Positions 40,693-60,136 of a stretch of DNA of 64,000 nucleotides are shown here, piece by piece. Each line of letters opens with the position of its first letter. Position 1 is the stretch's first letter. The notes under the pieces are model-generated. The model made no database searches. It was given only the letters and a program-made list of their open reading frames with translations, and had not been told where the DNA came from. The DNA is from an uncultured Clostridia bacterium. GTDB lineage: Bacteria; Bacillota; Clostridia; Christensenellales; UBA1242. The DNA lies in assembly GCA_947632645.1 (NCBI GenBank), contig CANRQB010000001.1:70813-134812 (forward strand), written 5' to 3'. A program made the translations under genes and the position numbers.

Positions 40693-40697
40693 AATTT

Positions 40698-40719: not shown

Positions 40720-40841
40720 TTTGGTGTTGTGTTTTTTATTTTTATATAGTAAATAGATAATTTCGCTTAATTTTTTTGTTTTGCGGCAATTTTGTTTGTT
40801 AAAATTAATTTTTTTGCTATAATAAACTAAAAGGAGGGGCT

Positions 40842-42320
40842 ATGGCGGACGACGACGAATTTGAAGATGATGAGCAATTAGATGAAGAAGATTTGGGCGA
40901 CGAAGAAACCGATAATGGAGACGAAATCGCGGACGACGATGACAACGACGAAGAAGATGACGAAGAAGAACAAGATAGCCAGCAAATGGCTAATGCCGAT
41001 AAAACTGCCATAACCAACCGATTAAAAAAATTAGAAAAATCATTAAAGAAAAGGCCAGTTCCAATTTTGTCGCCAAAAGAAAAACGACTTATAAAACAGG
41101 GAAAAGCAGTAAATCCAAAATTGGCATATAGAATAGAACTTTTATCATTAAGGCGTAAAGCAAGCGCTGCGCGTAAAACGATTATTGGTGGCGGTGTGCT
41201 TGTGTCGCTTTTGCCAGTAATTTTGGTTGTGCTAGTATTGGTAATGATTGGCTCGATAATCTCGTCAATATTTGGCTCGCGCTATAACGACGATGGCACG
41301 CCTGCGCCAAGTGAACTTGCACTTAACGGGAATCAAATATATGCCGCCCGCGCATTTTACACAGACGATGCGGCAGCAAACAAAAAAATTATTAATGACT
41401 ATTGTGGATATATCGCCTCGGCAATTGAGGGATACAACAGCACAAGCAGCGAATTTACACTTAACATAACACTACCTGCAAATGCCTTTGATTATAGCGA
41501 ATTTTTAACCATGTATACCGATACCCAGTATGGGTATTATAGGCTTGCTAGGTTAAGCTATATTTTTGCGCAAAATGTTAATTTGCAATATGGATTAAAT
41601 AAAACCGAAACCGATTTTGCGGGCATAATTAATGATATACAATATTTTGGGTTAGAGCAATCGCAGTTTGAAGAGGCAATGGGTGCAGTGGCCAACGAAA
41701 TTGTTAAAAATGGCGAGGACGATTGGTACACGCCAAAAGAGGGCAACAATCAGCCAAATATGTCTAACGATGCGCTTAGCCAAAGTTTAATTGAGGCGTC
41801 CAACTTTTCTGCAAGTGAACTTACACAAAAGGTATTTGTTGTAGATAGTGTGGTGGAAGGCGATAACACTCTTGCTTGGTTTAATGCCGGCGCAACCGCA
41901 AATGAAAAAACAAAAAAATACCTTGCAATAATGTATTTTCCGCACGCAAATTTTAGCATAGGAAGTTTATCTTATGCGTTTATAAAAACAGGCGAAGGTG
42001 AGGTTGTTGTTCACTATGGCGAAAATAGTTATAAGCTGCAAGCCGTGTCGGTGGAGGACGATAACTACACCTACGAAAGCGAAGAAATAAATTTAAATGT
42101 GTCGGCAAGCGAAAAGCCAGCTGTGCTGCTATCTAGCGATGCAACACTTAGCGAACTTTTCTCGCAAATAAAATCGCAGGACGAACAAAACCTTGACACA
42201 TATTTTGATGTGCAAGAGGTTGACGGCAAAAATGTTTATACCTACAAATTGTTTAACCTTTACGCCGAATTTAACTTTGATGACTATTTCAGCTTTGCCG
42301 ACCAAAACAATTCATATTAG
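40842..42320 (+). CDS. Bitopic membrane protein with an extremely acidic N-terminus; T4SS-associated, function unknown
   Basis: 492 aa; MADDDEFEDDEQLDEEDLGDEETDNGDEIADDDDNDEEDDEEEQD; single TM (GGGVLVSLLPVILVVLVLVMIGSIISSIF); ~350-aa extracytoplasmic domain with no recognisable motif. Confidence 0.7.
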   Translation: MADDDEFEDDEQLDEEDLGDEETDNGDEIADDDDNDEEDDEEEQDSQQMANADKTAITNRLKKLEKSLKKRPVPILSPKEKRLIKQGKAVNPKLAYRIELLSLRRKASAARKTIIGGGVLVSLLPVILVVLVLVMIGSIISSIFGSRYNDDGTPAPSELALNGNQIYAARAFYTDDAAANKKIINDYCGYIASAIEGYNSTSSEFTLNITLPANAFDYSEFLTMYTDTQYGYYRLARLSYIFAQNVNLQYGLNKTETDFAGIINDIQYFGLEQSQFEEAMGAVANEIVKNGEDDWYTPKEGNNQPNMSNDALSQSLIEASNFSASELTQKVFVVDSVVEGDNTLAWFNAGATANEKTKKYLAIMYFPHANFSIGSLSYAFIKTGEGEVVVHYGENSYKLQAVSVEDDNYTYESEEINLNVSASEKPAVLLSSDATLSELFSQIKSQDEQNLDTYFDVQEVDGKNVYTYKLFNLYAEFNFDDYFSFADQNNSY

Positions 42321-42360
42321 GCGCAAACTGTACTTTTGCTAAATTAATTTGGCAAGCAAA

Positions 42361-42700
42361 TTAATTGTAAGCATGTCGCAACAACCCTTTATTAATCGTT
42401 TTGCATACGCAAAACTTCATTTTTAGGGATGTTGTTCCTTTCCCCAAAAAATTACGATTTTTTCGGGGGCCCCAAATTTTTGCGCCTTTGCTATTAAGGG
42501 ACACCCGCTGGTTTCCCTTAATAAATCCTTTCCTGAAATGTGTCTGCCTACGCAAGGGAACTGCAGCGGGGAAAGTTTTAAAATTTTGCATACCTACGCA
42601 TGGGAATATTTACTTTTCTATGCTAGAAAAGTTACAAAAGACCTGGGGCGTTCCGATTCGCCCCAGACCCCACAAACGGCTTACTTTAAAAATAAGCAAA
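42361..42700. other. Hairpin-dense, relatively GC-rich non-coding island inside the T4SS-like module (candidate ncRNA, oriT-like site or decayed gene)
   Basis: Stems: 42398-42415; 42442-42468; TTAAGGGA/TCCCTTAA 42494-42521; CTTTTCTA/TAGAAAAG 42613-42631; CTGGGGCG/CGCCCCAG 42643-42666; GCTTA/TAAGC 42679-42697. Direct repeat CCTACGCAWGGGAA at 42546 and 42592. No credible ORF. Confidence 0.45.
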
Positions 42701-42732
42701 AAGTAGATTTTTAATTAATATAAAATGCAATT

Positions 42733-42897
42733 ATTACAATAGTAATAAAAACGAATAACGTAATATTACAATAGTAATTAAATTAATTTTCAACATATCA
42801 TTATAACTTTAGTTATCAAAATTTTAACTAAGGTTTTTTATTTATCTAATTTTATAATTAATTTAGATATTGTGGCTGTCTTTATTACAATAGTAAT
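42733..42897. repeat. Three copies of ATTACAATAGTAAT (ATTAC-N4-GTAAT) upstream of the VirB6-like gene
   Basis: Exact 14-mers at 42733-42746, 42765-42778 and 42884-42897, each within TATTACAATAGTAAT. Confidence 0.8.
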
Positions 42898-42955
42898 AAT
42901 CATTTATAAAAAAATAAAATAAAATGTAAAAAAATAATAGATTTGTTTGTTTTTT

Positions 42956-42984
42956 TTGTTTATTTAGTGTATACTATGTATAAT
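42956..42984 (+). promoter_or_regulatory. Candidate promoter of the VirB6-like / VirB4-like genes
   Basis: TTGTTT (42956-42961), 17-nt spacer, TATAAT (42979-42984). Confidence 0.4.
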
Positions 42985-43029
42985 TAAAATAGCGTTTATA
43001 GTTAATTCGCAAATAGATATGGGGGAAAT

Positions 43030-45471
43030 ATGGTTGGAGGTTTTAGCATCGGTCAAGCAATAGAGGGCGCACTAGGTAACTTTTTATATCCACTTTTTAG
43101 CATTCTTATGGTTTTAATTGACGGGATACAACAATTGTTTTACGCTTTTGCTGGCGTCGGAGAAGTGTTTATTAATGGTCAAAAAATAACTTCTGGCAAC
43201 ACTGGTAATTTAACCGACACTGGCATAATATTTTATCTATTAAATTCAAATTTTGTAAGAAATATATTCATCTCGTTATTGGCACTTGCCGTAGTTTTGC
43301 TAGTGCTGTTTGCGGCAATCGCTTTTGTTAAAAATATGTATTCAGAAAAGCCAAAAACTTGGCAAGATATAATTGGTAATGCAGTTAAAGGGTTGGCAGG
43401 TTTTATTGTAACTCCGTTGATATGCATATTTGGCGCTTGGGGTGGCAATATATTGTTAAAAGCAATAAATCAGGCAACAAACGCTGGTGACACTGCAAAC
43501 ATGGCGGGGCAATTGTTTGTTGTGTCATCATATAATGCAAACAAAGTAAGAACAGGTGATATGAGTATAGAGCAAGCTAGATCATTCTTAACCGGACATC
43601 AAGGTGGCAATTATAGTGCCGATTGGTCAGCGGAAGATTACGCTAAAGAGATTGATAATTTTTACTCCAAAAATCCAGATTATTATTATGAAATTGCTAA
43701 AGTAGGCGATTGTTATAAAACATTCAAAATCAACTATTTATTGCTTGGAATTGGTGGCGTATTTATGTTATATGCGCTGGGATCTATCACTTTTGGAGCA
43801 ATCAAACGAATGTTCCTTTTGGTTTTCTATTTTGTTATAAGCCCAGTTGCGCATTCGCTTGCTCCTATCGATGATGGTAAGGCTGGTGGAGATGTAAGAA
43901 GCAACTTTTATAAGCAATTTATAAGTGTTTATGGGGCTGTTGCCGGCTTAAATTTATTCTTTAGCGTCGTGCCTTTGTTCCAAAGTATGAAATTTGTTTT
44001 AGGATCAAGTACGCAAGATTTCTTATTTGGTGGGCTGGTTAACCTAATAATAATCATAGTTGGTTTATTAACCGTTAATGAACTTATCAGTTTTGTGTCT
44101 GGTTTTGCCGGCGGAGAAGATCTTTATGGTAAAGGAAAAGGTGTTATGAGTGGCGTACGTGGGCAAACTAAAAAATATGGCAAATATGTTCAAAAAGCTG
44201 GCGGAGCCTTTATTGGTGGTACAATTCGTGGTGTTGGTAGAGCAAGAGAATCCTGGGCTAGAAATTCAGCTGAAAACCGTGCAATAGATGAAAGGAACGC
44301 ACAACGATTAGCACAATATAATCAAGGTAGAGCAGAAGCAGATCAAAAAGAACTTAGCCAACTAACCAATGAAGAAAGAAAACAATTAGGCATAGAAAGC
44401 CATAAACTTACAGGTGTGCGCGCAGGTGCTAGTTTTTTAGCTGGAACTGGAACCTCATGGCTAAAATCTGCCGGCGGCGCAATTAACAAGGGTGTTGGAA
44501 CTGCCATTCAAGAAACAACAGGACTTGATGTTGGTGGTAGTGCTAGTGAAATGGGGAAAAAATTTGCAGGATTTGTATCTGAAAATTATGGCACGGGTTA
44601 TGACACAAGAAAGGATAAAACTAAAAAAGCTGACACTAAAGCGTTGCAAGAGGCAATGAAAAGTGATAAAGATACTCGATATGTGGTAAATAAGGATGGA
44701 TTGACAATAGAAGGTAACAGCACGGTGCAGCACGCAGCCGAAGAAGCAGCGGTTGAATTATTAAAATCTATTAAGAAAAAAGCCAAAGATGATAAAGAAG
44801 CGGATAAAATGTTGGAAGAGTACACTGCAAAAGGCACTCAATTTAGCCAAATTTTAAAGGCATTGGGTATTGATGGCAAAAAGATGGAAGATCTCTATCC
44901 TGTGTTAGATAGTTCGGTTAAAACAAGGCAGAGTGCCGAGCGTGGCATTGCAAGATTGGATGACAGGACGAGATATGCCGAAAATGAAGAGGCAAAAGTT
45001 ACAGCTGCACAATCGTTTATAGATGCATATCATATTGAACGAGATGGCGAAGGCAGAATTGTTGGCGACGCCGCTAGATATGGCATTACAGATGATGCAG
45101 ATAAAACAAATTTTGCTAATATACAAACTGCATCTATCAATGCCTCAGGTGCAAGAGAAATTGCAAGAGAAATTGCTGGCAGCATAAAAGAAACACTCAA
45201 AAATGCTAACGACACTTATAAATCTAGTCGTACCTTTGCAGAATTTTCGGATGAGAGCATGGCAAAATTAAATCAAGCTATGAGTAAACTTGGCAGCAAG
45301 CTTGGTGACAAAGAGGATAAATTAATCGAAGCTATTAGAGGCATGACAGACAAAACTGTTAGAGAATTAAAAGAAGTTAAAAAAGCAGTTACAGACTCAG
45401 CAAAGGGTAGAAGAGGCAGCCGTGGCTCTAGCGGAGGTTCTGAGGATAGTGGGACAGGCAGCAGTACATAG
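43030..45471 (+). CDS. VirB6/TrbL-like polytopic T4SS membrane protein with a long charged C-terminal domain
   Basis: 813 aa. The N-terminal ~360 aa hold multiple TM helices; the C-terminal ~450 aa are charged and coiled-coil-like, ending in a G/S/R-rich tail. Immediately precedes the VirB4-like ATPase. Confidence 0.6.
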   Translation: MVGGFSIGQAIEGALGNFLYPLFSILMVLIDGIQQLFYAFAGVGEVFINGQKITSGNTGNLTDTGIIFYLLNSNFVRNIFISLLALAVVLLVLFAAIAFVKNMYSEKPKTWQDIIGNAVKGLAGFIVTPLICIFGAWGGNILLKAINQATNAGDTANMAGQLFVVSSYNANKVRTGDMSIEQARSFLTGHQGGNYSADWSAEDYAKEIDNFYSKNPDYYYEIAKVGDCYKTFKINYLLLGIGGVFMLYALGSITFGAIKRMFLLVFYFVISPVAHSLAPIDDGKAGGDVRSNFYKQFISVYGAVAGLNLFFSVVPLFQSMKFVLGSSTQDFLFGGLVNLIIIIVGLLTVNELISFVSGFAGGEDLYGKGKGVMSGVRGQTKKYGKYVQKAGGAFIGGTIRGVGRARESWARNSAENRAIDERNAQRLAQYNQGRAEADQKELSQLTNEERKQLGIESHKLTGVRAGASFLAGTGTSWLKSAGGAINKGVGTAIQETTGLDVGGSASEMGKKFAGFVSENYGTGYDTRKDKTKKADTKALQEAMKSDKDTRYVVNKDGLTIEGNSTVQHAAEEAAVELLKSIKKKAKDDKEADKMLEEYTAKGTQFSQILKALGIDGKKMEDLYPVLDSSVKTRQSAERGIARLDDRTRYAENEEAKVTAAQSFIDAYHIERDGEGRIVGDAARYGITDDADKTNFANIQTASINASGAREIAREIAGSIKETLKNANDTYKSSRTFAEFSDESMAKLNQAMSKLGSKLGDKEDKLIEAIRGMTDKTVRELKEVKKAVTDSAKGRRGSRGSSGGSEDSGTGSST

Positions 45472-45508
45472 TTAAAATCTTATTATAGTGATTTTTCACG
45501 GAGGGGTT

Positions 45509-48295
45509 ATGATAAGGTATATTCCCGGTAAAACGAGGATTAAAACTGAATTTTTTAGAAACTTTGGGCTAATGGATATTCTATTAGCCATTGTTTTGGC
45601 TGTGTTTGCAATTGTTATTGCATCCAGCCAACGCTTGTTTGTGTTTGGCGGAACGGACTATCGCTGGTGGTTTGTGTTGGGCTGGATTGCAATATCTATT
45701 TCTATGTTTTTGCCAATTGATGATGGCCTTAAAATGTGGAATAGTATTGGGTTGGTTATAAGGTTTGCCGCTTTCCCACGCAAATATATTAACGATAAAA
45801 ATGCAAAAATTGTAAAAACCAAAAATGGCAAAACCAAAACTGTTGTTAAAGGCGGAAAGCCTATGAGCAGGCTTACACCTTTCTTTAACATAGAAGTGGG
45901 CAAGTATATAAACATGGGCAGTTATTCGGGCATCGCCATCGAAATTATGCCAGTTGCAATGGACCTTATGCAAGAAGAGGCGCAGGATGGCTTAATAAAC
46001 ACCTTTTCCCGTGCACTTAAACGTATAACGCGTTATCAGCGTGCGCAACTTATAAAAACCATAAAACCAATGCGTTTTGATGGCTTTTTGGATAGTGACG
46101 ATAAGAAATACGATTTGCTTAACACCTTGTACGAGCAGGGGCAGTATAGCGATGCCGAGATGGAAAGCCGCAGTTTAATTTTCCGCGAACGTGTGGACAT
46201 TTTAAACAATGCAATAAACAGCGAGCCAATACTGCAAAATCACTACTATTTTGTGCTGTATGGCGACGATAGGCAAAGTTTGGACGATACCAGTGTGGGC
46301 TTTGTTAACGACCTTGCCAGTGGGCAGTATTCTATCGCCAGCAAAATTCTTATGGAAGAAGAGCTTATAAGTTTTTTAAAATCTAACTACGATGATGTGT
46401 ATTCCGAGCAGGATATTAAAAACCTTGCGCCAAGCCAGGTTAACAACTGGGTTATGCCGGGCAAAATCAACTTTAAAGTGGCGCGCTTGGAAATGGATAA
46501 AAGAAGTTATCGCCAACTTGCAATTTCCGATTATCCTATGGAGGTTGGTAATGGTTGGGCGTACCAAATATTTAACCAACCAGGCACGCGTGTGGTTATG
46601 AACATTATGCCGGTGGATAGGGAGAAGGGCGAAAAGGCCATTGACCGCGCCGTTATGGAGAAAGAGTTAAAACTGGAGCGCACCTATAGAAGCAGCCAGA
46701 TTATAGAAAAGGAAGCAGATATTGATAGTTTGCGCACCCTTTTAACCGATATTAAAACCAATAACGAACAGATTTACGATATCAGCATCCATTTGCGTGT
46801 GGAAGAGCAAAGCAGAAAAGAAGTGCGCAACGTGCTTAAACAATATGGCTTTAAACAGAGCGAATTATTTGGGCGCCAGGTGGACGCGTTTGTATCCAGC
46901 AGCTTAAATAGGATAGACACTCTAACCAACTTCTACCGCACTATGCCATCTACCACTATCGCTGCATCCTTCCCAATGGTGGATAGTTTGATGCAGGATA
47001 AAAATGGGTTCTGCCTTGGGCGCTCGTCGTCTAGCGGATACCCAGTGTTTATCGATTTCTTTGTGCGTGATAGCCGCGCCGGGCGTATTAACAGTAACCT
47101 TATGGTTATTGGTAAATCGGGCTCGGGCAAATCGTTTGCGGTTAAGGATATTTTGGCAAACCTTGCCGCCGACCGCACTAAGATATTCCTACTAGACCCA
47201 GAGGACGAATACGGCCCGCTTACACACAACTTGGGCGGCAAACTTATCGACGTTGGCACAAATAGTTCGGGTATTATAAATCCTTTCCACATTATGGCAG
47301 CGCTTGAGGACTTGGAAACCGGTGTGGGCGAGGAAGATGATGATGAAGATAAGAGCATAGATGAACTTGTGGCGCGCGGCAATAACAAAACTTTCTTTAC
47401 TCATTTGCAGTTTTTGGAGCAGTTCTTCCGCGCAATTTTGGAGGGCATAAGTTCGGACGCATTTGAAACACTTAACACTTTGGTGGTAGAACTCTATCAC
47501 AGCAAGGGGATAGACGAAAAAACCGATATCGGCAAACTTACTGCCAACGATTATCCAATTTTTGATGACTTATTTAAACTTATTAAAGATAAACTAAAAA
47601 CGGTTAAGGACGAATTTTACCGCAACAATCTGCTTGTGCTGGAAACCTATATTCAAAAATTTGCAACTGGCGGGCGCAACTCGGATTTGTGGAACGGCCC
47701 AACCAGCATTTTAACTGACGAAAACCTTATTACATTTAACTTCCAAACACTGTTTGCCAGCAAGAACAACAAGTTGGCAAACGCGCAGATGCTGCTTGTA
47801 TTTAAATATTTGAACAACGAAATTATCAACAACAAACGCTTTAACGAACAATATTATGCGCGCACGGGCAACGACATTAAACGCCAAGTTGTTATTGCGG
47901 TGGACGAAGCGCACATGTTTATCGACCCAGACAGCCCGGTTGCGCTTAACTTTATGGCGGAGATGGCAAAACGTATACGTAAATATCAGGGTATGCAAAT
48001 TGTTATTACGCAAAATATTAAGGACTTTTTGGGCACGCCAGAAATTCAGCGCAGATCGGCGGCAATTATTAATGCCTGCCAATACAGCTTGATACTGCAA
48101 CTTGCGCCAAACGATATGGCGGATTTGTTGGAACTTTATAAGAGCGCGGGCGGCATAAACAAACGCGAACAAGAGGGCATTTTAACCGCACCTCAGGGCA
48201 GGGCATTCTTTATCACCAGCCCAATGAACCGCTCGTTTATCGACATTATTGCTCAGCCAATTGCGAGGGAGATTATGGGCGAAGGGCGAAGATAA
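45509..48295 (+). CDS. VirB4/TraE/TrbE-family T4SS ATPase with an N-terminal VirB3-like membrane segment
   Basis: ATG at 45509 after GGAGGGG. Two N-terminal TM helices; Walker A VIGKSGSGKSF; LLDPEDEY; Walker B VIAVDEAHMF; ...IVITQNIKDF... Confidence 0.88.
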   Translation: MIRYIPGKTRIKTEFFRNFGLMDILLAIVLAVFAIVIASSQRLFVFGGTDYRWWFVLGWIAISISMFLPIDDGLKMWNSIGLVIRFAAFPRKYINDKNAKIVKTKNGKTKTVVKGGKPMSRLTPFFNIEVGKYINMGSYSGIAIEIMPVAMDLMQEEAQDGLINTFSRALKRITRYQRAQLIKTIKPMRFDGFLDSDDKKYDLLNTLYEQGQYSDAEMESRSLIFRERVDILNNAINSEPILQNHYYFVLYGDDRQSLDDTSVGFVNDLASGQYSIASKILMEEELISFLKSNYDDVYSEQDIKNLAPSQVNNWVMPGKINFKVARLEMDKRSYRQLAISDYPMEVGNGWAYQIFNQPGTRVVMNIMPVDREKGEKAIDRAVMEKELKLERTYRSSQIIEKEADIDSLRTLLTDIKTNNEQIYDISIHLRVEEQSRKEVRNVLKQYGFKQSELFGRQVDAFVSSSLNRIDTLTNFYRTMPSTTIAASFPMVDSLMQDKNGFCLGRSSSSGYPVFIDFFVRDSRAGRINSNLMVIGKSGSGKSFAVKDILANLAADRTKIFLLDPEDEYGPLTHNLGGKLIDVGTNSSGIINPFHIMAALEDLETGVGEEDDDEDKSIDELVARGNNKTFFTHLQFLEQFFRAILEGISSDAFETLNTLVVELYHSKGIDEKTDIGKLTANDYPIFDDLFKLIKDKLKTVKDEFYRNNLLVLETYIQKFATGGRNSDLWNGPTSILTDENLITFNFQTLFASKNNKLANAQMLLVFKYLNNEIINNKRFNEQYYARTGNDIKRQVVIAVDEAHMFIDPDSPVALNFMAEMAKRIRKYQGMQIVITQNIKDFLGTPEIQRRSAAIINACQYSLILQLAPNDMADLLELYKSAGGINKREQEGILTAPQGRAFFITSPMNRSFIDIIAQPIAREIMGEGRR

Positions 48296-48310
48296 TCCGC
48301 CTCTATTATT

Positions 48311-48341
48311 GGGCGCACAAGTGTGTGTGCCCTTCTTTTTT
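48311..48341 (+). terminator. Terminator after the VirB4-like gene
   Basis: GGGCGCACA-agtg-TGTGTGCCC followed by TTCTTTTTT. Confidence 0.7.
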
Positions 48342-48495
48342 GGCGGTTATCTTCGCCTATTATGAAGGGGGACCTGCTTCCCCCTTCATGACTTCCCTCT
48401 TGAATAGGTTGAATTTTTAAGAAATATATAGATGATATGTATAAATCTTACGTTTTTTTGTTGATTTTTGCTTAAATTTTGGTTAAAATAACTAT

Positions 48496-49416
48496 ATGTT
48501 AAATGACGATTTAAATAAGGTGGTTATTGTTGGGTGCGGCAATGTGGGCATGAGCTATGCCTTTAGTTTGGTTATCGATAGCAAGGTTAACGAGTTGGTG
48601 CTTATCGACATCAATCAGCAAAAGGCAGAAGGCGAGGCGCTGGATTTATTGCACGCATCAAGCGTGAGCGAGCACAAAATTAAAATTAAGGTGGGGGATT
48701 ATTCTGATTGCGACAATGCGGACATTATTTGCATCGCAGCGGGCAGAAATCAAGAAAAGGGTGAGGATAGAAATGCACTTATAGATAAAAATATTGGCGT
48801 GTTTAATTCGATAATTAGCGAAGTTAACAAAACCAAATTTAACGGCATCTATCTTATTGCTACCAATCCGCTTGATGTTATGACGTATGTTACGCTAAAG
48901 CTATCTGGTTTCCCTGCAAATAGGGTTATAGGCAGCGGCACCACACTGGATACCGCGCGGCTTAAATACATTGTTAGCGAGCAAGTGGGGGTTAACCCAA
49001 AAAATATTCACGGCTATGTTATTGGCGAGCATGGTGATAGCGAGCTTGTGCCATGGAGTACGGTGCGCGTTGGAGTAAATGCGGCTGAAAAATACCTAAG
49101 CAAACCAAAACAAAATAAGATAGTTGCAAATGTGCGCAACAGTGCATATGAAATTATAAACAAAAAGGGCAACACGGCATATGGCATTGGCATCTGCCTA
49201 AGAAACATTACCGATGCAATTTTTAACGACTCCAATTATATATTCACCACATCCAGCTACATTAAAAAATATGGATGCTGTGTGGGGTATCCAACAATAA
49301 TAAATCGCGCGGGGATAAAAGACATTTTGCCAATATCTTTAACCCAAAGCGAGCAAGTCGAATTTAATGACAGTGTAAAGGCAATTAAGAGTAATATCAA
49401 AAATTTAAAACTTTAA
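48496..49416 (+). CDS. ldh: L-lactate dehydrogenase
   Basis: 306 aa; ...VVIVGCGNVGMSYAF...LIDINQQKAEGEALDL...GEHGDSE... Confidence 0.9.
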   Translation: MLNDDLNKVVIVGCGNVGMSYAFSLVIDSKVNELVLIDINQQKAEGEALDLLHASSVSEHKIKIKVGDYSDCDNADIICIAAGRNQEKGEDRNALIDKNIGVFNSIISEVNKTKFNGIYLIATNPLDVMTYVTLKLSGFPANRVIGSGTTLDTARLKYIVSEQVGVNPKNIHGYVIGEHGDSELVPWSTVRVGVNAAEKYLSKPKQNKIVANVRNSAYEIINKKGNTAYGIGICLRNITDAIFNDSNYIFTTSSYIKKYGCCVGYPTIINRAGIKDILPISLTQSEQVEFNDSVKAIKSNIKNLKL

Positions 49417-49594
49417 GTTAAAAAATTTGCCAAAAAATTTAACAATAGGCATATAAAAATTAAACTAAAAAAATTAAAAATTTTAAAAAAACCAACCAAA
49501 ATTTAAAAAAATTGCGCATTTTTGTGCAATTTTTCATGTTTTTTATAGAAATTTTTAAAATTTTAAGCAAATTTTATATTTTGCTTTTTTAAAT

Positions 49595-50131
49595 TTACAT
49601 TATCTGCTCGGTTAAAAATTTTGCAAAGGCGCGGCACACTTTAACGCTGCTATCATCAAAGCATTTGTTTTCGTTTGCCAAAATTATAATTGAGCCAATT
49701 GCATCGCCATCTTTAACAATTGGCACAATAAGTTGGCAACAGCTGGTGTTTGTTTCGTCCGCAAAAATATCTAACATTTGGCTGCCATCTTGCTGGCGTT
49801 TAATAATTAACTCTTTATTGTAAATTAAATCCTGCACGGCATTAGAAAGTGTCTTATTTGCATATCGCTTTTTGTTGGTTGCCACCACCACTTCTAGGTC
49901 GGTTATTATAATGTCGTGCTCTATGCTTTCCGCAATAGCTGTCACAGCAGATTGGCTATACAAATTTAGTGTGCCAATCGGGCTATATTTGCTAAGCAAA
50001 AATTTGCATCCGTCCACAATGCTTATTTCTAGTTGGGTGCCCTCGCGTACATTTAGCGTGCGCCTCATCTCGCGCGGCAGCACAATGCGGCCTAATTCGT
50101 CAACTCGTCTAACAACCCCTTTAACTTCCAT
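49595..50131 (-). CDS. spoVT: SpoVT/AbrB-family regulator (stage V sporulation protein T-like)
   Basis: 178 aa. N-terminal swapped-hairpin domain GVVRRVDELGRIVLPREMRRTLNVREGTQLEI plus a GAF-like C-terminal domain, the same length and architecture as SpoVT. Confidence 0.8.
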   Translation of the reverse strand: MEVKGVVRRVDELGRIVLPREMRRTLNVREGTQLEISIVDGCKFLLSKYSPIGTLNLYSQSAVTAIAESIEHDIIITDLEVVVATNKKRYANKTLSNAVQDLIYNKELIIKRQQDGSQMLDIFADETNTSCCQLIVPIVKDGDAIGSIIILANENKCFDDSSVKVCRAFAKFLTEQIM

Positions 50132-50274
50132 ATAAACTCCTAGTTTTAGTATGTTGCAATAAATTTTTATTATGCAGTTAAAACGGGCAAAATATTTGTA
50201 TTATTTTAACAAATTGCTTTTTTACTATTGATTTTTATTAAAAATTATGTTATAATTTTTTTAAGAGGTATAAA

Positions 50275-53200
50275 ATGGTTAATATTATTAATCCATCTGA
50301 TGTAAAAAATACAACATTTGAAGAGTTAAGCCGTTTGGATGGCAGCATTTTGCAAAATTTTAAAAATGTGCGGTTTTTAATGGATGGCAGTTCAACTTGG
50401 TTTAGTCTTGGCGAGTTGGAAATTGTAGATGGCAAAACAAGAAGAGTTCCAACCTCACTTAAAGAGGTGGTGGATGCCTACAAAAATAGGCAACTGCGCA
50501 GAAGTGGCTTTTCCTACATTTGGGGCAGTGATGTTCACGATGCTACAAATATAACAATAGACCCATATAGTTTAACAGACACATATGTTTCGGATAGCAT
50601 AATTCCGGATGGCGCGGATGCAGCCGACTATATGTATGGCTTAAGAAGATTATTAAAAGTGCAACCATCTAGCGACGCTAATTTTAAAGAAAATAGATTT
50701 ATGTATGTTTGTGTTGACGGCATATGGAATTTTTATGATAAAAACGATATAGGCTACTATCAGGATGGCAAATTTACACCGATAAAAGATTTATCTAGGG
50801 ATGAGGTTGCAGAAATTGCAGATAAAGATTTGTATCTTTCGGATAGCTATGGTAACGCCCACATCACTGGTGTAATAAATCAGTCCTACTCTTTAACCCA
50901 AGTGGAGCATTCGGGCATGCCGGTTGTGGAAAGAATTTCTGACGATGGCTCAGCAATAACCTCGTATGTTTTAACAGATGATGGAACAAATTTCAGGTCG
51001 TATGTGTCAGGAAATTACGTAACAACTAACACTAGCAGCACAAGCGAATTTAACGAGCAATCTTTTTCGCTTAACAACAATGATGCACGCATGCAAACAA
51101 CCATTTATCAAACAAGCCAAAATGGCAACTATCTGCGCTTAAAGTTGCAAGGGCAATCCGAGCCGATAGCAGTGCGAGTAACTGGTGAGCAAAGCCAGCT
51201 ATACTATGCCGACAAATCCGGCAATCATGGCGAACAAGTAAGGTTGGATACCGAAGATCGCGCGCAAGTGTTACGCAGGATAATTGGTCAAGAATTATTT
51301 GTAAAAATAACCAGTGGGGCAGAAGAAAAATGGGAGCGAACCCAAGCAATAACTGCTCAGCAAGCACTATTTGCCTATAACACTGAAAAATTTATGCAGT
51401 CCACCAAACAGCATGATAATTACATGGCGGATAACGCTTATTTGCGCCTAAGCGATGGGCGTTATGTTAAAGAAAGCGAGTTTGTTCGCCCAATAGCGTA
51501 CAATTTTGTGTTTGACGAAAAGGCAGAATATGACGCTTATCTTTGCTATGTAACCAATGCCGAGGGCAAAACCGAAACCATTATTGCACCAAAAGATTTC
51601 ACTGGCGGCCGTATTGCTGGCTTTAATGTGCGCTCAGAGGATATGCTTCGCATCAAAAAAACCACAAGTCCGCTAAAGGAAAGCAACGTAATTCAAACCA
51701 CCAATAATGGCGAAAAATTAAACAGGTGCGTAACCTTAAACGAGCGTCCAGAAAAAGGTGCAATCACCGCAGCCAAAAAAGAAAAGGCAGATGAATTGTT
51801 GCAAAATGCGCTACAGCAGTTTAAAAACGAATATCAACAGGGCAGATATGCAATCGACGGCAATAAAGTGCTGGTTAAGCAAGAAGATGGCAGCTATAAA
51901 GAAATGGGCTTAGATTGCTCGGGCGAACTGCCAAAGCGCTTTATTTACTCGGACGAAATTTACACAGAGGACACAACTCACAGCGATAGCAAGTATAAAT
52001 ATCTATTAAACAACCCAGAATTTGTGGATGAAGCTACAGGAAAATTAAAAAATGGGCCTAAATTTAACACCAAAGCAGCAATTAAAGATTTCTACAAAAA
52101 ATTTGGTGCGTTTGGCTTAAAAGTAGGCGCAACATTCTTCCTTGGTGGCGGATTGTTGGCGTTGCTTGGCGCTCCTGTGCTTGTGGCTGGTGCGGCTGCA
52201 GCATATGTTGCAACCGGAGTTCTTGCGCCATTCTATTATTTGGCAAAAGGTATTCGTCTAAAATTTAAATCTTTTGCAGATAAGGTGGTTGCCAACCGCA
52301 ACAACATAAAAAAGAACTTAGATAATCAGTTGCAAAGTTTATATGAAAAAATTATGTCGCGCGCCGATACTATCAGTAAGGAAAAACAAAGGCTAGAGGG
52401 GTTGCAATCCACTCTCGATAGCGACCTTAATAGTGACCATTATGCCGATCTTCCTGGGGTGAAGGAACAAGATAATATTATAGAAAAATTGCGTGAAAGT
52501 TTGCCTAAAGATAGATGGGCAATCCTAGAAGAAGATTACGAAACTTATCTAGAAAAACAAACCTATATTAACAAAAATATTTTGGAAAAAATAATTTTTG
52601 TTGATGGCAAAAAAGTTTCTTCTAAAAAGAATTTAACCAAAGAAGATTTTGAAAAACTTGCAACCTGCTTAGATATTTCGGTAGACGAACTAAAATTTAA
52701 TTATTTAACTTCTAAGGGCAATTTAAAAACCAGTGAAATATTTAAAAAATTGCAAAAATTAACTACGGCATCTAAAGAAGTTAAAAAATACCAAGCAACC
52801 TTGCAACAAATTGTGGATGCTAAATCTATGCGCAGGCAAATTGTTGTCGACCACCTAAATAATGCACTGCAAAATTGCAATGGCGAGTTGGAAGCCCTTA
52901 AAAATAATTTAGAGGCAGCGCTAAATGGCGATATCGCTGCTGGCATCCACAGTTTAAGCGAAACCAGATATTTGGCTTTGTTTGAAATTAAAAATGGCTA
53001 TGCGGATGTAACCGAAGCGAATGCAGCACTATATAGCAAATTTAATTCGGACATTAAAAAAGTGGCGGGCAAACTAACCAAAATAAACAGTAAAGTAAGC
53101 AAAAATCCGGCTGACGCATCCCTAATTGCCGAGCAAAAACAATTGCAGGCCAATTTGTATGCGCTAATCAATTCGCCAAAAGCGGGCGCAATATACGACG

Positions 53201-54087
53201 AACTTAACGAGCGCCGCGAATACGAGCAGAAGATAGAAACTTTAAAAACCTATCTTGGCGTTAAATACTTTGATGGCACAACAACCATTTCTATGGTGGA
53301 CGAGCAACTTAAATCGGGTGCATACACACTGGACGCTACTACCATGCAGTACAAATTGTCTAGGCATTCTAGGAACAAAAAGCAAGACAAAATAGACGAG
53401 CAAAAATTTAACAGCCACATTTCTAGGTTTAATGGGCAAGTTTACAAGGCCGATCAAACTGTGGAGGTTGATGGGTTTGAATATCGTTGCATTAAAATTG
53501 GCGATAATCTATATGCTAAAAACAGCAGTGGCGAATTTAAACAAGTGGTTAAAGATAAGGATAAAACCTATACATTTAAAGATATTGCTGATAATGTAGA
53601 TTTAGAGGCACACAAAATGCTATCGTCTACAAAAATTACAGTGATAGAAGAAAGTGGCCATTACGAAAAACCTGTGGTTGAAGAAGTTGCCCCTGCGCCT
53701 AAGCCAGACGAGGTTAATCCAGCCAACGAGGAAGAAAAACGCAAAAAGGCAGAAAAAAATGCAGAAAGAAAGGCAGAGTACAGCAAGCCAATTTCCGAAA
53801 GCACAGTGCAACAAAACGATCTTTGGAAGGGCATCGTTGCCGCGCGTCAAATTGATTTGGCGGGCGAAAATGCTGCAGAAGAGGTGGCAGAATTTAGCAA
53901 AAAACTTAAATTTATAACCAGCAAAAAATACGCTGCTTTGCTAGAAAAAGCGGCAAAAAGTGCACCAATCGAAATTGAAGTTAAAGGCAAAAAACAGATA
54001 GTAGATATTGGTTTGTTAAGCGACACAAGCGAGCATATAACAAACATTCAAAATTTGGTGGAAAAACTAAAAGGCAAAACAAAATAA
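50275..54087 (+). CDS. Giant (1270 aa) hypothetical protein with a central two-helix membrane anchor and a coiled-coil C-terminal half
   Basis: No signal peptide. Hydrophobic pair ...FGLKVGATFFLGGGLLALLGAPVLVAGAAAAYVATGVLAPFYYLAKG... near residue 640. The C-terminal half is heptad-like and K/E-rich. Extended -10 TGTTATAAT upstream. Confidence 0.75.
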   Translation: MVNIINPSDVKNTTFEELSRLDGSILQNFKNVRFLMDGSSTWFSLGELEIVDGKTRRVPTSLKEVVDAYKNRQLRRSGFSYIWGSDVHDATNITIDPYSLTDTYVSDSIIPDGADAADYMYGLRRLLKVQPSSDANFKENRFMYVCVDGIWNFYDKNDIGYYQDGKFTPIKDLSRDEVAEIADKDLYLSDSYGNAHITGVINQSYSLTQVEHSGMPVVERISDDGSAITSYVLTDDGTNFRSYVSGNYVTTNTSSTSEFNEQSFSLNNNDARMQTTIYQTSQNGNYLRLKLQGQSEPIAVRVTGEQSQLYYADKSGNHGEQVRLDTEDRAQVLRRIIGQELFVKITSGAEEKWERTQAITAQQALFAYNTEKFMQSTKQHDNYMADNAYLRLSDGRYVKESEFVRPIAYNFVFDEKAEYDAYLCYVTNAEGKTETIIAPKDFTGGRIAGFNVRSEDMLRIKKTTSPLKESNVIQTTNNGEKLNRCVTLNERPEKGAITAAKKEKADELLQNALQQFKNEYQQGRYAIDGNKVLVKQEDGSYKEMGLDCSGELPKRFIYSDEIYTEDTTHSDSKYKYLLNNPEFVDEATGKLKNGPKFNTKAAIKDFYKKFGAFGLKVGATFFLGGGLLALLGAPVLVAGAAAAYVATGVLAPFYYLAKGIRLKFKSFADKVVANRNNIKKNLDNQLQSLYEKIMSRADTISKEKQRLEGLQSTLDSDLNSDHYADLPGVKEQDNIIEKLRESLPKDRWAILEEDYETYLEKQTYINKNILEKIIFVDGKKVSSKKNLTKEDFEKLATCLDISVDELKFNYLTSKGNLKTSEIFKKLQKLTTASKEVKKYQATLQQIVDAKSMRRQIVVDHLNNALQNCNGELEALKNNLEAALNGDIAAGIHSLSETRYLALFEIKNGYADVTEANAALYSKFNSDIKKVAGKLTKINSKVSKNPADASLIAEQKQLQANLYALINSPKAGAIYDELNERREYEQKIETLKTYLGVKYFDGTTTISMVDEQLKSGAYTLDATTMQYKLSRHSRNKKQDKIDEQKFNSHISRFNGQVYKADQTVEVDGFEYRCIKIGDNLYAKNSSGEFKQVVKDKDKTYTFKDIADNVDLEAHKMLSSTKITVIEESGHYEKPVVEEVAPAPKPDEVNPANEEEKRKKAEKNAERKAEYSKPISESTVQQNDLWKGIVAARQIDLAGENAAEEVAEFSKKLKFITSKKYAALLEKAAKSAPIEIEVKGKKQIVDIGLLSDTSEHITNIQNLVEKLKGKTK

Positions 54088-54132
54088 AAAGGTGGCAACG
54101 TGCCATCTTTTTTAAAAATTTTAAAAAGGGTA

Positions 54133-54160
54133 TTGACAAATAAAAAATTTATGGTAAAAT
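54133..54160 (+). promoter_or_regulatory. Promoter of the 31-aa-repeat protein gene
   Basis: TTGACA (54133-54138), 16-nt spacer, TGgTAAAAT (54152-54160). Confidence 0.6.
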
Positions 54161-54180
54161 TGTGTTAGTTGGAGGAAATT

Positions 54181-56364
54181 ATGGATAACACGCAAGATGA
54201 AAAAATGATAATAAATTTAACAATAAAAAAATTAGTACGTTTTTTACATGAACGAGCTTGGTATTGGGATGATAAATTTAGTTGTATCTTTGAAGAAATA
54301 GCTAATAAAGTAAATTCATTTGCTGCCATAGTTAAAGGTTTGGCAAAAAAGCTATTCTTAAAAGATACAGCAGCAGATCATAAAAAACTTGCCGAATATT
54401 TAGTATATTTATCCCATGATGACCTTTTAGATGTTTTAGATACAGTTATTAAAACTAATGATGGAAATCTTATTTATAGATTTGCTTGCGATGCAGATTG
54501 CTTAACTTATGAAGACAAAGTAAAATTAATGGACAAACTTATTAAGATAAACGACTATTCTCGGTTGCCTTATTTTGCAAAGGATGTTAGAGGCATAACT
54601 CACGAGGACATAGTAAAATTAGCAGACGCAACTATTAAAACTAACAATGCGGAATATATTTATAAATTTGCTATAATTGTAAAATATTTATTAAACCACG
54701 AGGACATAGTAAAATTACTAGATGCAGTTATTACAACTAAAGATGCGGGATATATTTTTGACTTTCTTCAAAATGTAAGAGGCTTAAACAATGATGACAA
54801 AGTAAAATTATTAGATGTAGTTATTAAAACTAAAGATGCGTATCTCATTTTTGGTTTTGCTACAAAAGTAAAAGGCTTAAGCCCTGAAGACAAAGTAAAA
54901 CTATTAAAAGCAGAAATTGCAACAGGTAGTGCGAAATATATTTATGAATTTGCTAAAAATGTAGAAGGCTTAGAGCGTGAAGACAAATTAAAATTATTAG
55001 ATGCAGTAATTGCAACTGGTAGTGCGGAATATATTTATAAATTTGCTAAAAATGTAGAAGGCTTAAACCCTGAAGACAAAGTAAAACTATTAGACGCAGT
55101 TATTGCAACTGGCAATGCTGAATATATTTACGAATTTGCTAAAAATATACGAGACTTAACCACTGAAGACAAAGTAAAACTATTAGATGCAGAAATTGCA
55201 ACTGGTAGTGCGAAATATATTTATGAATTTGCTATAATTGTAAAATATTTATTAAACCACGAGGACATAGTAAAATTATTAGATTTAGTTATTAAAACTA
55301 AAGATGCGTATTATATTTATAAATTTGCTAAATATGTAGAAGGCTTAACCCCTAAGGATAAAGTAAAACTATTAAATGCTTTAATTGCAACTGGCAATGC
55401 TGAATATATTTACGAATTTGCTAAAAATATACGAGACTTAACCACTGAAGACAAAGTAAAACTATTAGATGCAGAAATTGCAACTCGCAATGCGGTGTAT
55501 ATTTATTATTTTGCTATACTAATGTGGCGGGACTTAGCACGCAAGGACCAAGTAAAATTATTAAATGCAGAAATTGCAACTGGCGATGCGTATTATATTT
55601 ATATATTTGCTGCAGAAGTAAAAGGCTTAACCCCCGATGACAAAGCAAAACTATTAAAAGCAGAAATTGCAATTGGCGATGCGTATTATATTAATGTATT
55701 TGCTTTAGGAGTAAAAGGCTTAACCCCCGATGACAAAGTAAAACTATTAGAAGTAGAAATTGCAACTGGCAATGCGGAATATATTTATCAATTTGCTACA
55801 GAAGTAGAAGGCTTAACCCCCGATGACAAAGTAAAACTATTAGAAGCAGAAATTGCAACTGGCGATGCGGAATATATTTATCAATTTGCTACAGAAGTAG
55901 AAGGCTTAACCCCCGATGACAAAGTAAAACTATTAGAAGGAATTATTGCAACTGGCGATGCGTATTATATTAATGAATTTGCTTTAGGAGTAGAAGGCTT
56001 AACCCACGATGACAAAGTAAAATTATTAGATTTAGTTATTAAAACTAAATATGCGGGTAGGATTTTTGATTTTGCTACAAAAGTAGAAGGCTTAAGCTAT
56101 GAAGACAAATTAAAATTATTAAATGCTTTAATTGCAACTGGCGATGCGTATCATATTTATCGATTTGTTACAGAAGTAGAAGGCTTAAAAATTGATGATT
56201 TTTATACAATATACGATGCATTCATGCATGACAAATTTGATGATAAAAGATATTTTAACAGATTTCTTAAATTATTTAAAGAAACGTTTGGGTTAACAAA
56301 ACAAGAAATAGAGGAAAATCGAGAATTTTTACTATTTAAATTCACAAAAATTTCACCTGTGTAG
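54181..56364 (+). CDS. Tandem-repeat (about 19 x 31 aa) predicted alpha-solenoid protein
   Basis: ATG at 54181 after GGAGGA. Repeat consensus L-[TNS]-P-[ED]-DKVKLL-x-A-x-IATG-x-AEYIY-x-FA-x-x-VEG. 93-nt DNA period. No signal peptide. Confidence 0.8.
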   Translation: MDNTQDEKMIINLTIKKLVRFLHERAWYWDDKFSCIFEEIANKVNSFAAIVKGLAKKLFLKDTAADHKKLAEYLVYLSHDDLLDVLDTVIKTNDGNLIYRFACDADCLTYEDKVKLMDKLIKINDYSRLPYFAKDVRGITHEDIVKLADATIKTNNAEYIYKFAIIVKYLLNHEDIVKLLDAVITTKDAGYIFDFLQNVRGLNNDDKVKLLDVVIKTKDAYLIFGFATKVKGLSPEDKVKLLKAEIATGSAKYIYEFAKNVEGLEREDKLKLLDAVIATGSAEYIYKFAKNVEGLNPEDKVKLLDAVIATGNAEYIYEFAKNIRDLTTEDKVKLLDAEIATGSAKYIYEFAIIVKYLLNHEDIVKLLDLVIKTKDAYYIYKFAKYVEGLTPKDKVKLLNALIATGNAEYIYEFAKNIRDLTTEDKVKLLDAEIATRNAVYIYYFAILMWRDLARKDQVKLLNAEIATGDAYYIYIFAAEVKGLTPDDKAKLLKAEIAIGDAYYINVFALGVKGLTPDDKVKLLEVEIATGNAEYIYQFATEVEGLTPDDKVKLLEAEIATGDAEYIYQFATEVEGLTPDDKVKLLEGIIATGDAYYINEFALGVEGLTHDDKVKLLDLVIKTKYAGRIFDFATKVEGLSYEDKLKLLNALIATGDAYHIYRFVTEVEGLKIDDFYTIYDAFMHDKFDDKRYFNRFLKLFKETFGLTKQEIEENREFLLFKFTKISPV

Positions 56365-56473
56365 CGCAGGTGGTTTTTATTTAAGGAAATTGTATTTTTC
56401 AATTCATTTAGATTGCACAATTCATTTGACATTTTGCGGGGTTTCTATTAAAATATAATAGTTAGGAGTTATT

Positions 56474-58076: not shown

Positions 58077-59399
58077 TTACCACTCCAATTTATTTATTTC
58101 GCTTATAACTGCGTCTTGATGTTTTTGTTCTTCAGTAAGTTGTTTTATGGCCGCAGCCCTTTTACTGTCAATTTCATTGTCCAACTTATCTAATTGTTTG
58201 TCAAATTCTTTAACTACTTTATCTGGAACTTCATCAGTGTAGCCGTTTTCTTCACAAATTTGATTAAATTTTTGTTTAAATTTATTTTTAATTATAGCGC
58301 ACAACACAAATACTGCCTCATTGTTGGCAAAAATTTCAATTGGTAATTGATCGAATTTTATTTTGCCTGCGCCATAAAGGATAAGGGCTTTTTGTGCCCT
58401 GTAAGTTGGCTCAAAAATTGCTGCAGGAATAGAATTTTTTGTTTTTTCATCAACAAGATTTGCTGTATTATGACGCCAAGAAGCACCCATATTTATAATT
58501 TCTTGCGGAATTTTCTGAATTTGTTTTTGTGACAAGCGTTTTAAATATCCGCCATTTAATGCGCGTCTATTAATGCTTTTTTGCGAAATTGATTTTATCA
58601 TGTCTTCTGTAATACAATCCAGATCCAAATCACCGCCATTTTCAACATATAAGTCAAAATCCTTTTTAGAGATAGCAGCAATCTGTTTTGCTGTTAAATT
58701 CTCTAGCGAATAACCATTTTGTGCACGTTTGTTTACAATTTCTTGTGGGATTGCTGCAATTTTTTCGCTTGGAAGATAACTTAAGCTCCAGCCATTTAGC
58801 GCACGTTGATTAATTATATCATTTGGTATGTATAGGTCTAATCTCATCAATTTAAATTTAGTTAAGTCGTCTAAATCTCCACCATTAGCAATATATTGAA
58901 ATAAAATGTGCTCAGGAATTGAAGATAATTGCATTTTAGTAAGATAATTTAAATCTCCGCCATTTGCGATATATTTAATAATGATTCTAGAAGGAATATT
59001 TTCAATTTGTTCTCGCGTAAAACAGTCAAGATACTTACCATCTATTGCGTATTGATTAACAATTTCTTGCGGAACTGCTTTTATTTGCTTGTTTGTAAAG
59101 TAACTAGGATCTTTGCCTAATTGCAAATATTTGTTTACTATTTCTTGCGGAACGGCTTCTATTTTAGGTAGAAGTCCCAAATCATAGCCTTTTGCCACGC
59201 GCTGATTAATAATATCTTGAGGAATAGCACTATTTTTTATTTGAAAGTTTTCAAGATAAAGCAAATTTCCACCATTGGCAATATATTTCAATATAACTTC
59301 TTGCGGAATCGCAGAAATTTGTGCTTTAGATAAGAAATCTAGATCTCCGCCATTTGCGACATATTGATTTATGTCGTCTTGTGTTAACTCATATTTCAT
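58077..59399 (-). CDS. Tandem-repeat (about 12 x ~26 aa) protein with a coiled-coil C-terminus
   Basis: 440 aa. Repeat consensus IPQEI(V/I)N-x-Y-(I/A)-ANGGDL-x-(Y/F)LT-x-x-QI-x-A. No signal peptide. AGGGAGG RBS. Confidence 0.8.
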   Translation of the reverse strand: MKYELTQDDINQYVANGGDLDFLSKAQISAIPQEVILKYIANGGNLLYLENFQIKNSAIPQDIINQRVAKGYDLGLLPKIEAVPQEIVNKYLQLGKDPSYFTNKQIKAVPQEIVNQYAIDGKYLDCFTREQIENIPSRIIIKYIANGGDLNYLTKMQLSSIPEHILFQYIANGGDLDDLTKFKLMRLDLYIPNDIINQRALNGWSLSYLPSEKIAAIPQEIVNKRAQNGYSLENLTAKQIAAISKKDFDLYVENGGDLDLDCITEDMIKSISQKSINRRALNGGYLKRLSQKQIQKIPQEIINMGASWRHNTANLVDEKTKNSIPAAIFEPTYRAQKALILYGAGKIKFDQLPIEIFANNEAVFVLCAIIKNKFKQKFNQICEENGYTDEVPDKVVKEFDKQLDKLDNEIDSKRAAAIKQLTEEQKHQDAVISEINKLEW

Positions 59400-59560: not shown

Positions 59561-60136
59561 CTATACTGTGGAATTTTTAATTTCTTGTTCGCAATCTTCA
59601 AGCCATTGTGGAAATTTTTGTTTGCAGAATTTATAGGTGTTGCTGTCGGTGTTATTTAGAACTCCAAAACGGATAATTCTATCTTTTATGTGGCGTTCCA
59701 TTTGCTCAACATACTCGGGCGCGGTTGAGAATTTATGAAAATCAATTTTGCCTTGTTTTATAAGTTTATTAATCACTTTATATAAATCATCCACCTTTGT
59801 GCACTTTAAAACTTTGGCGGGCTGACTACTGACAACCTCTGGGCTAAAACTGGTTTTGCCCTCTTCAAAATTGGCTGGGTTAACCTCATAAATATAGCAA
59901 CTTTCGTCTTGAAAAACCCGCTCCAGCGCGCCAGGATACGCCTCAAAAAAGCATGGCTTGCCATTGTTTAGCCCCAAAATTCCGTCAAAATCACCAAAAC
60001 TTTTTTTGCTTCCAAACATAAGCGCAAGGCACAAGTCGGACGTGGCGTAAACATAACTTACACCATGAGTTGAAACGGGCGGCTCAAGCACTGTTATGCC
60101 CGGTGTTGCCGAAACATGATATAATTTCTTTTTCAT
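59561..60136 (-). CDS. Hypothetical 191-aa protein
   Basis: Clean ORF; no recognisable family. Confidence 0.6.
   Translation of the reverse strand: MKKKLYHVSATPGITVLEPPVSTHGVSYVYATSDLCLALMFGSKKSFGDFDGILGLNNGKPCFFEAYPGALERVFQDESCYIYEVNPANFEEGKTSFSPEVVSSQPAKVLKCTKVDDLYKVINKLIKQGKIDFHKFSTAPEYVEQMERHIKDRIIRFGVLNNTDSNTYKFCKQKFPQWLEDCEQEIKNSTV

Follow-up and report, generated by a model that had tools for sequence, protein, structure and literature searches.

Our analysis of a 64,000-nucleotide (nt) stretch of DNA from an uncultured Clostridia bacterium (contig CANRQB010000001.1; this whole stretch is called the window here) suggested that the tandem-repeat gene at positions 54181-56364 encodes a horizontally acquired, cytosolic alpha-solenoid from an unnamed and fast-evolving family. 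The protein would serve for binding, as a scaffold whose surface is reshaped as the DNA of its repeat units recombines. We consider this reading likely, though well short of certain. In the mechanism that we propose, conserved hydrophobic positions would hold the stacked units together as a rigid rod or superhelix, and variable residues on the exposed helix faces and in the linkers would form a long composite binding surface. Given the acidic and chemically mixed character of this surface, a protein is the most likely ligand. Homologous recombination between near-identical unit DNA would then duplicate, delete and convert units, altering the length and the order of the binding surface.

The repeat array is highly regular. 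Tandem Repeats Finder reported a period of 93 nt with 16 copies and 77% matches, together with higher-order periods of 186 and 279 nt. Manual dissection anchored on the motif D-K-V-K-L gave 18 clean units on the + strand (54502-56184) with the consensus LTPEDKVKLLDAEIATGDAEYIYEFAKNVEG; the units are 31 amino acids (aa) long except for three of the 18, which have 32. One degenerate unit flanks the clean array on each side, the first of which (54409-54501, +) reads LSHDDLLDVLDTVIKTNDGNLIYRFACDADC in translation. A hidden Markov model made from the units counted 19 of them, covering aa 81-672 of the open reading frame (ORF). Thus, the approximately 19 tandem 31-aa units with a 93-nt period that an initial annotation of this DNA had described, from its letters alone, are present, as 18 clean units plus a degenerate one at each end. 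The same annotation had listed an invariant core, and this stood only in part. D5, K8, L9, I14 and F25 are found in 18 of the 18 units, and they are the only invariant positions. The other positions that had been counted as core are less constant: L1 and I22 are kept in 17 units each, L10 and A26 in 16 each, V7 in 15, K6 and Y21 in 14 each, G31 in 13 and Y23 in 12.

The way in which these positions are distributed is consistent with a fixed scaffold that displays a variable surface. The constant positions carry hydrophobic or capping residues (L1, D5, K8, L9, L10, I14, T16, A19, I22, F25, A26 and V29), and variation within the array falls at positions 2-4, 11-13, 15, 17-18, 20, 24, 27-28 and 30-31. 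On the second helix of the unit, helix B, the variable positions are spaced i, i+4, i+7 and i+8, which points to a single exposed face; by helical periodicity, a prediction made from the sequence, the variable positions would lie on the surface. Moreover, the positions that vary in the window protein are those that vary throughout the family (Spearman rho 0.63, p 0.001, using the entropy of each position in 264 distinct units from 110 homologues). The earlier proposal of a fixed scaffold with a variable surface is therefore supported, since the buried hydrophobic positions are constant and the same positions vary in the 110 homologues.

The protein is confidently predicted to be a regular alpha/alpha solenoid. 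AlphaFold2, run with a 51-sequence alignment, modelled the whole protein with a mean pLDDT (predicted local distance difference test) of 83.6, exceeding 85 over most of the array, and a six-unit fragment with a pLDDT of 93.3 and a predicted TM-score (pTM) of 0.83. Each modelled unit consists of helix A (positions 3-16, 14 residues), a G-D turn, helix B (positions 19-28, 10 residues) and a five-residue linker. This is in keeping with the solenoid that had been predicted before any model was made. The orphan N-terminal region (aa 1-76, 54181-54408, +) was also modelled as helical, with a pLDDT of 47-63. As previously claimed, the protein has neither a transmembrane segment nor a signal peptide: a Kyte-Doolittle scan found no transmembrane-like segment in it, and its N-terminus is polar, unlike a signal peptide. 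The isoelectric point (pI) is 5.18 and the array holds 93 aspartate or glutamate (D/E) against 75 lysine or arginine (K/R) residues. We also entertained the idea that the protein is a DNA mimic, which was dropped, the net charge being just modestly negative.

Comparison of the models with known structures, using Foldseek, returned from the PDB generic helical repeats only (designed repeats, the Sel1-like proteins HcpC, LpnE and LceB, TPR proteins and VPS35), with TM-scores of 0.5 or less and a best E-value of 2e-4, obtained with the six-unit fragment. Superposition on the Sel1-like proteins gave query-normalised TM-scores of 0.38-0.44, root-mean-square deviations (rmsd) of 8.5-10.7 Å and E-values of 2e-3 or worse. 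Among predicted viral structures, the top match was A0A6J5RY29 (BFVD), an uncharacterised and unannotated protein of 246 aa from an uncultured Caudovirales phage (TM-score 0.65, 24% identity, rmsd 3.8 Å over 177 columns, E 2.7e-7), which is probably a true relative of the repeat protein. The other viral matches were Sel1-like proteins of giant viruses, with TM-scores of about 0.4.

The array also carries direct footprints of recombination. Three DNA identities reported in the initial annotation are exact and maximal, all of them on the + strand. In a 102-nt cassette, 55102-55203 equals 55384-55485, so that the junction of units 7 and 8 is the same as that of units 10 and 11; in a 53-nt cassette, 54665-54717 equals 55226-55278, the junction of units 2 and 3 being the same as that of units 8 and 9; and two adjacent copies of 75 nt, 55772-55846 and 55865-55939, lie within 55772-55939. 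Units 14 and 15 are 98% identical. At the mean unit identity of 77%, runs of this kind have a chance expectation of 4e-8 for 102 nt, 4e-5 for 75 nt and 0.014 for 53 nt. Unit 8 is a mosaic, its 5' part equal to unit 11 and its 3' part to unit 2: the 48 nt that open it (55156-55203), joined to the 54 nt of unit 7 directly before them, match the unit 10/11 junction, and the 26 nt that close it, with 27 nt beyond them, match the unit 2/3 junction. That unit 8 combines two other unit types indicates recombination. The exact cassettes and this mosaic unit confirm that units of the window gene have recently been duplicated or converted; recombination may also be ongoing, as had been suggested.

In addition, many core codons show no synonymous differences among the units, which argues for homogenisation at the DNA level. 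The ratio of non-synonymous to synonymous divergence (dN/dS) between units was 1.19 overall, with 0.58 for the core and 1.58 for the variable positions; of the three, only the overall value is unbiased because the variable class was defined after inspection of the data. Ongoing turnover of units is seen only in a relative of the gene. One orthologous gene exists as a nine-unit allele in the related loci L001-L003 (L001, 6332-7825) and as a seven-unit allele in L004 (3288-4613). These come from near-identical gut strains: the L001 and L004 alleles differ by an exact, in-register deletion of two units, and the neighbouring genes are 100% identical in nucleotide sequence. P0015 represents a third allele, again of seven units, in which another pair of units is deleted in register. 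Because there are two distinct in-frame deletions, a real polymorphism in unit number is favoured. Perfect adjacent unit duplicates are also present in relatives.

Repeats of this type invite the suspicion that the assembly produced the array falsely or that it is a functionless repeat in decay, a reading that we regard as highly improbable. The sequence probably stems from a metagenome assembly, repeats collapse easily, and there is no second copy of the locus to compare. However, no break in the reading frame occurs across 2.2 kb of AT-rich DNA, the frame has proper expression signals, the exact repeats do not exceed 102 nt and are set in diverged sequence, the core positions stay conserved, and the family is widespread with the same architecture.

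The repeat belongs to an unnamed family, as the initial annotation had supposed. Searches of the repeat arrays with Pfam, NCBIfam, PHROG and PADLOC gave no real family match, and a sequence search of the PDB with the window protein was empty. The Pfam matches WHIM1, RHH_ERCC6L2, NrdI and NikR_C on the window protein, OHA and SH3_6 on its homologues, and the PADLOC Cas6b, NCBIfam and PHROG matches on the arrays were rejected, each having zero individually significant stretches; they are artefacts because weak scores were summed over the repeats. A word-indexed search found 50 homologues (top E-values 1.5e-70 to 1e-30), and the exhaustive search, run with HMMER, gave 423 representative clusters (E<=1e-3), not one of which has a real Pfam repeat annotation. 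A profile search returned the same set of homologues and reached no annotated repeat family. The best homologues are about 45% identical over the arrays. Scans of genomes, metagenomes and viral contigs found no ortholog of the window gene, only paralogous members of at most 47% identity, and tblastn against deposited phages and plasmids gave no match. This is a new, unnamed repeat family of about 420 clusters with a familiar alpha-solenoid architecture.

Unit length in the family spans 27-32 aa. In most relatives it is 27-30 aa, the mode being 28, and their consensus is YIYxFARDVKGANIEKLEDAIIATGNAE; the unit of the window protein has about three extra residues where helix A begins. The window protein has the shared core motif, [YF]-I-[YF]-x-F-A ... 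K-L-x-D-A-x-I-x-T-G, and its conserved and variable positions are those of the family. Its relatives P0005, P0006 and P0020, from gut metagenome-assembled genomes (MAGs), are clear homologues that share this motif and these variable positions; such gut relatives differ from the window protein in having mostly shorter units, different N- and C-terminal domains and clusters of tandem paralogs. A dedicated search with the N- and C-terminal regions of the window protein alone found no homologue. The sources that could be traced are gut metagenomes or MAGs labelled as uncultured Tenericutes (UMGS1045), Bacilli or Clostridia, with one Muribaculaceae bin, and the readable sample names refer to human (Hadza) and rabbit gut. 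Family members often lie side by side as tandem paralogs, as in UMGS1045 (L005), where four adjacent genes have 17, 19, 12 and 9 units, in L007 and L014 (three each) and in L001 (two). The surroundings of the relatives are ordinary chromosomal ones, annotated as housekeeping genes.

This picture bears on whether the protein could be a modular reader of nucleic acids, with one unit per base, like TALE, PPR or PUF proteins. The two-helix repeat, the near-identical DNA units and the few recurrent variable positions would suit such a reader, and the conserved tyrosines could in principle stack on bases. Nevertheless, we find the idea extremely unlikely: the array is net acidic by the residue counts given above, variation is spread over about 15 of the 31 positions instead of forming a code of one to three residues, nothing closer than generic solenoids was found by sequence or by fold, and the family's variation in unit length is hard to square with a fixed nucleic-acid register.

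The base composition of the window gene is atypical. Its G+C content at third codon positions (GC3) is 0.18, against 0.45-0.51 for VirD4, VirB4, GlyRS and LeuRS and 0.34-0.43 for EF-Tu, EF-G and lactate dehydrogenase (LDH). We measured five loci of relatives, which are 25-29% GC, and in these the family genes have a GC3 of 0.12-0.20, near that of their own neighbours. The family is thus compositionally native in these five loci. The low GC3 of the window gene together with the native GC3 in the relatives is what a fairly recent transfer from a lineage of this kind, or from its phage, would leave behind, and the window copy probably came by horizontal transfer from a low-GC lineage to which the family is native.

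Several observations weigh against the binding scaffold reading or some part of it. First, 'binding scaffold' is the default reading for any alpha-solenoid. Second, dN/dS among paralogous units that undergo concerted evolution is hard to interpret. Third, the unit-number alleles come from short-read metagenome assemblies, one of them with about 3x coverage, so collapse is possible. Finally, the best homologue is just about 45% identical and most homologues have shorter units, and a cause other than transfer could in principle underlie the low GC3.

The gene itself has the anatomy of a real transcription unit. The + strand ORF (54169/54181-56364) encodes a 727-aa protein, and its 727 codons stay open in DNA of 30% GC. 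We assigned the start codon to the ATG at 54181 because a Shine-Dalgarno sequence, GGAGG (54171-54175), sits 5 nt before it, the two together spanning 54171-54183 (+). Upstream of these, a promoter-like site on the + strand (54133-54160) consists of TTGACA, a 16-nt spacer and TG-TAAAAT; it matches the consensus at 11 of 12 positions with an extended -10, identified by consensus match only, and scored highest among the sites found in a scan of 8.8 kb. A terminator-like hairpin read from the sequence (GGTGGCA-ACG-TGCCATC followed by TTTTTT, 54091-54113, +) closes the upstream gene, which encodes an orphan protein of 1270 aa; a terminator scan also returned this hairpin, on the - strand. At the 3' end, the last degenerate unit, the orphan C-terminal helices and the stop codon occupy 56185-56364 (+), and a second hairpin of the terminator type and its T-run (56353-56383, +) overlap the stop codon. 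The downstream GlyRS gene carries its own promoter-like site. With a promoter-like site, a Shine-Dalgarno sequence and a terminator-like hairpin of its own, and a hairpin at the end of the upstream gene, the repeat gene looks monocistronic, real and independently transcribed, as predicted from consensus matches.

The window contains, upstream of this gene, a set of genes resembling a type IV secretion system (T4SS; 37943-54087). The set includes VirD4 (37943-39955, -), a T4SS pilin (40303-40692), a VirB4/TraG-like ATPase (45488-48295), an acidic 492-aa orphan and an 813-aa orphan that by eye looked like a membrane protein. The region is interrupted by LDH and SpoVT/AbrB genes, and the 1270-aa orphan, which has a central hydrophobic hairpin, follows the set. 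No relaxase or integrase was recognised among the window ORFs scanned. The T4SS ATPase genes have native GC3, and the set looks domesticated, not mobile.

This neighbourhood raises the alternative that the repeat protein is a substrate, an effector or a cytoplasmic adaptor of the T4SS, being exported or recruiting cargo. The gene lies about 6 kb downstream of the VirB4/TraG-like ATPase gene, with VirD4 and the pilin in the same region, the protein lacks a Sec signal, and two homologues are fused to a PcfJ-like domain, named for a gene of the conjugative plasmid pCF10. However, we hold this alternative to be very unlikely. The repeat gene has its own promoter-like site and terminator, with a hairpin separating it from the upstream gene, the LDH and SpoVT genes break up the region, and the GC3 of 0.18 contrasts with 0.49 for VirB4 and 0.45 for VirD4. 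Co-occurrence with the T4SS-like genes, which the initial annotation had put forward for checking, was not found: the related loci L001-L022 contain no homologue of VirB4, VirD4 or any other protein of the T4SS region of the window, and their annotated contexts are housekeeping. The proximity of the T4SS is best read as coincidental, because no T4SS homologue occurs in these loci. Moreover, one of the PcfJ fusions lies on a phage-like contig, not on a conjugative element. The literature on PcfJ, on the repeat motif and on RF39 in connection with a T4SS was uninformative.

Domain fusions in the family are rare, with PcfJ-like domains in P0040 and P0124 and an AAA_5 domain in P0214. P0124, of 1497 aa, combines the PcfJ-like domain with about five units and is encoded at 10001-14494 of L025 (JGI 3300037067, Ga0378408_0000078), a jumbo-phage-like contig of 212 kb that is crowded with small ORFs and carries NT5C, dCMP deaminase and Lar-like genes. 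The non-repeat parts of P0124 match hypothetical proteins of Ralstonia, Pseudomonas, Agrobacterium and Dickeya jumbo phages. In P0214 (L023, 1525-3645), repeat units are fused to an AAA_5 ATPase domain of the dynein/MoxR/McrB type; its neighbours are unannotated, and one of them (5533-7677) bears repeat units too.

These members suggest that the protein could belong to a phage-host conflict module, as a variable sensor, decoy or inhibitor that would bind a protein of the phage or of the host, is shuffled by cassettes and is exchanged among gut Firmicutes and their phages. The tandem paralog clusters with unit-number alleles would fit this, as would a between-unit non-synonymous divergence at least as high as the synonymous one, the composition indicating horizontal acquisition, the jumbo-phage-like contig of P0124, the Caudovirales protein that is the best structural match and the member fused to an AAA_5 domain. 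On the other hand, these fusions are single cases, and there was no PADLOC or meaningful PHROG match. The window protein lacks an effector domain, and its gene has no defence genes around it. Neither it nor a typical homologue with 28-aa units was matched among the deposited phage records (50,697 for the window protein), and the window protein was also unmatched in IMG/VR. On balance, a conflict module seems rather unlikely to us. A broader version, which we think more doubtful still, is that the family as a whole consists of cassette-shuffled binders common to low-GC gut Firmicutes and their large phages. Duplication, deletion and conversion of cassettes, and their exchange among tandem paralogs, would continually supply new binding surfaces for conflict between phage and host or among bacteria, and the window copy would be a recent horizontal import into a 40% GC genome.

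The rest of the window is largely chromosomal housekeeping DNA. By gene order, the S10-spc-alpha ribosomal operon occupies about 3.7-18 kb, where L30, S5, L15 and SecY were read, and elongation factors and several aminoacyl-tRNA synthetases are encoded as well. The chromosomal T4SS raised the idea of a CPR or Saccharibacteria origin, which was rejected: the window encodes L30, which CPR genomes generally lack, it also has a SpoVT/AbrB homologue, and relatives of the repeat gene lie in MAGs labelled Bacilli or Tenericutes. No tRNA gene and no Rfam match at the gathering threshold was found across the 64 kb; the lack of Rfam matches was observed despite the ribosomal-protein operons, where leader elements are commonly detected. 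Another tandem-repeat protein, 440 aa long and apparently unrelated to the first, is encoded at 58077-59399 (-). It has about 11 units of 26-30 aa resembling IPQEIVNKYIANGGDLDYLTKxQIxA and a coiled C-terminal tail, and gave no convincing match in Pfam, NCBIfam, PHROG or PADLOC (a few were weak or below the curated cut-offs). With an atypical GC3 of 0.23, its gene may be another horizontally acquired orphan flanking GlyRS. Several ORFs among the housekeeping genes have no Pfam match: 609-2372 (587 aa), 26879-28087 (402 aa), 28149-28661 (170 aa), 35884-36639 (251 aa) and 59561-60136 (191 aa). Finally, two adjacent ORFs (36673-37092 and 37257-37808, -) both match Ser_hydrolase and could be tandem paralogs or a split gene.

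Returning to the alpha-solenoid scaffold, the analysis defines a hitherto unnamed family of about 420 clusters. Its fold is predicted with confidence, scaffold and surface positions are clearly set apart, and the turnover of units has left direct traces. Compared with the initial annotation, the present analysis adds the 27-32-aa range of unit lengths, the mosaic unit, the unit-number alleles of a relative, the independent transcription unit and the evidence for a horizontal origin, which decouples the gene from the T4SS. As regards annotation, the repeat gene should not be grouped with the adjacent T4SS genes and is likely a horizontal import. If the variable surface is adaptive, the family would represent natural modular binders, and it could mark fast-evolving interactions between hosts, phages and bacteria in a poorly known part of the gut microbiota. 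Its interest would grow if the shuffling of cassettes proved to generate adaptive diversity.

Among known systems, the Sel1-like repeat proteins HcpC (1ouv), LpnE (6deh) and LceB (8sxq) likewise have two antiparallel helices per unit and superhelical stacking. They are protein-binding scaffolds from host-associated bacteria and giant viruses, and together with TPR and VPS35-type proteins they were the recurrent natural matches in Foldseek. Sel1 units, however, are 36-44 aa long, longer than the 31 aa of the window repeat, and Sel1-like proteins are frequently secreted, whereas the window protein has no signal. The Pfam Sel1 (PF08238) and TPR models gave no match on the window protein even at E<=1, and none of the homologues has a precomputed Sel1 or TPR domain; HEAT, HEAT_2 and HEAT_PBS likewise gave none on the window protein at E<=1. 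The TPR/HEAT-type solenoids (LGN, LapB and VPS35) and the designed repeats (5k7v, 8ga7 and DHR71) belong to the same generic alpha/alpha solenoid class, and the designed ones top the Foldseek list because the window units are so regular. Nonetheless, the TM-scores to these proteins do not exceed 0.5, the sequences are unrelated, and both the unit length and the motif (YIYxFA, KL.DAII.TG) are distinct.

Lastly, the repeats of TAL effectors are also two-helix tandem units, of about 31-34 aa, with near-identical DNA that is reshuffled by recombination. There is no sequence match to TAL effectors, and no type III secretion, nuclear localisation or activation module was recognised. TAL effectors vary at just two residues in each unit, and their array is basic. 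By comparison, the units of the window protein are 31 or 32 aa long, 15 of their positions (about half) are variable and the array is acidic. The likeness to TALE and PPR proteins is no more than an analogy.

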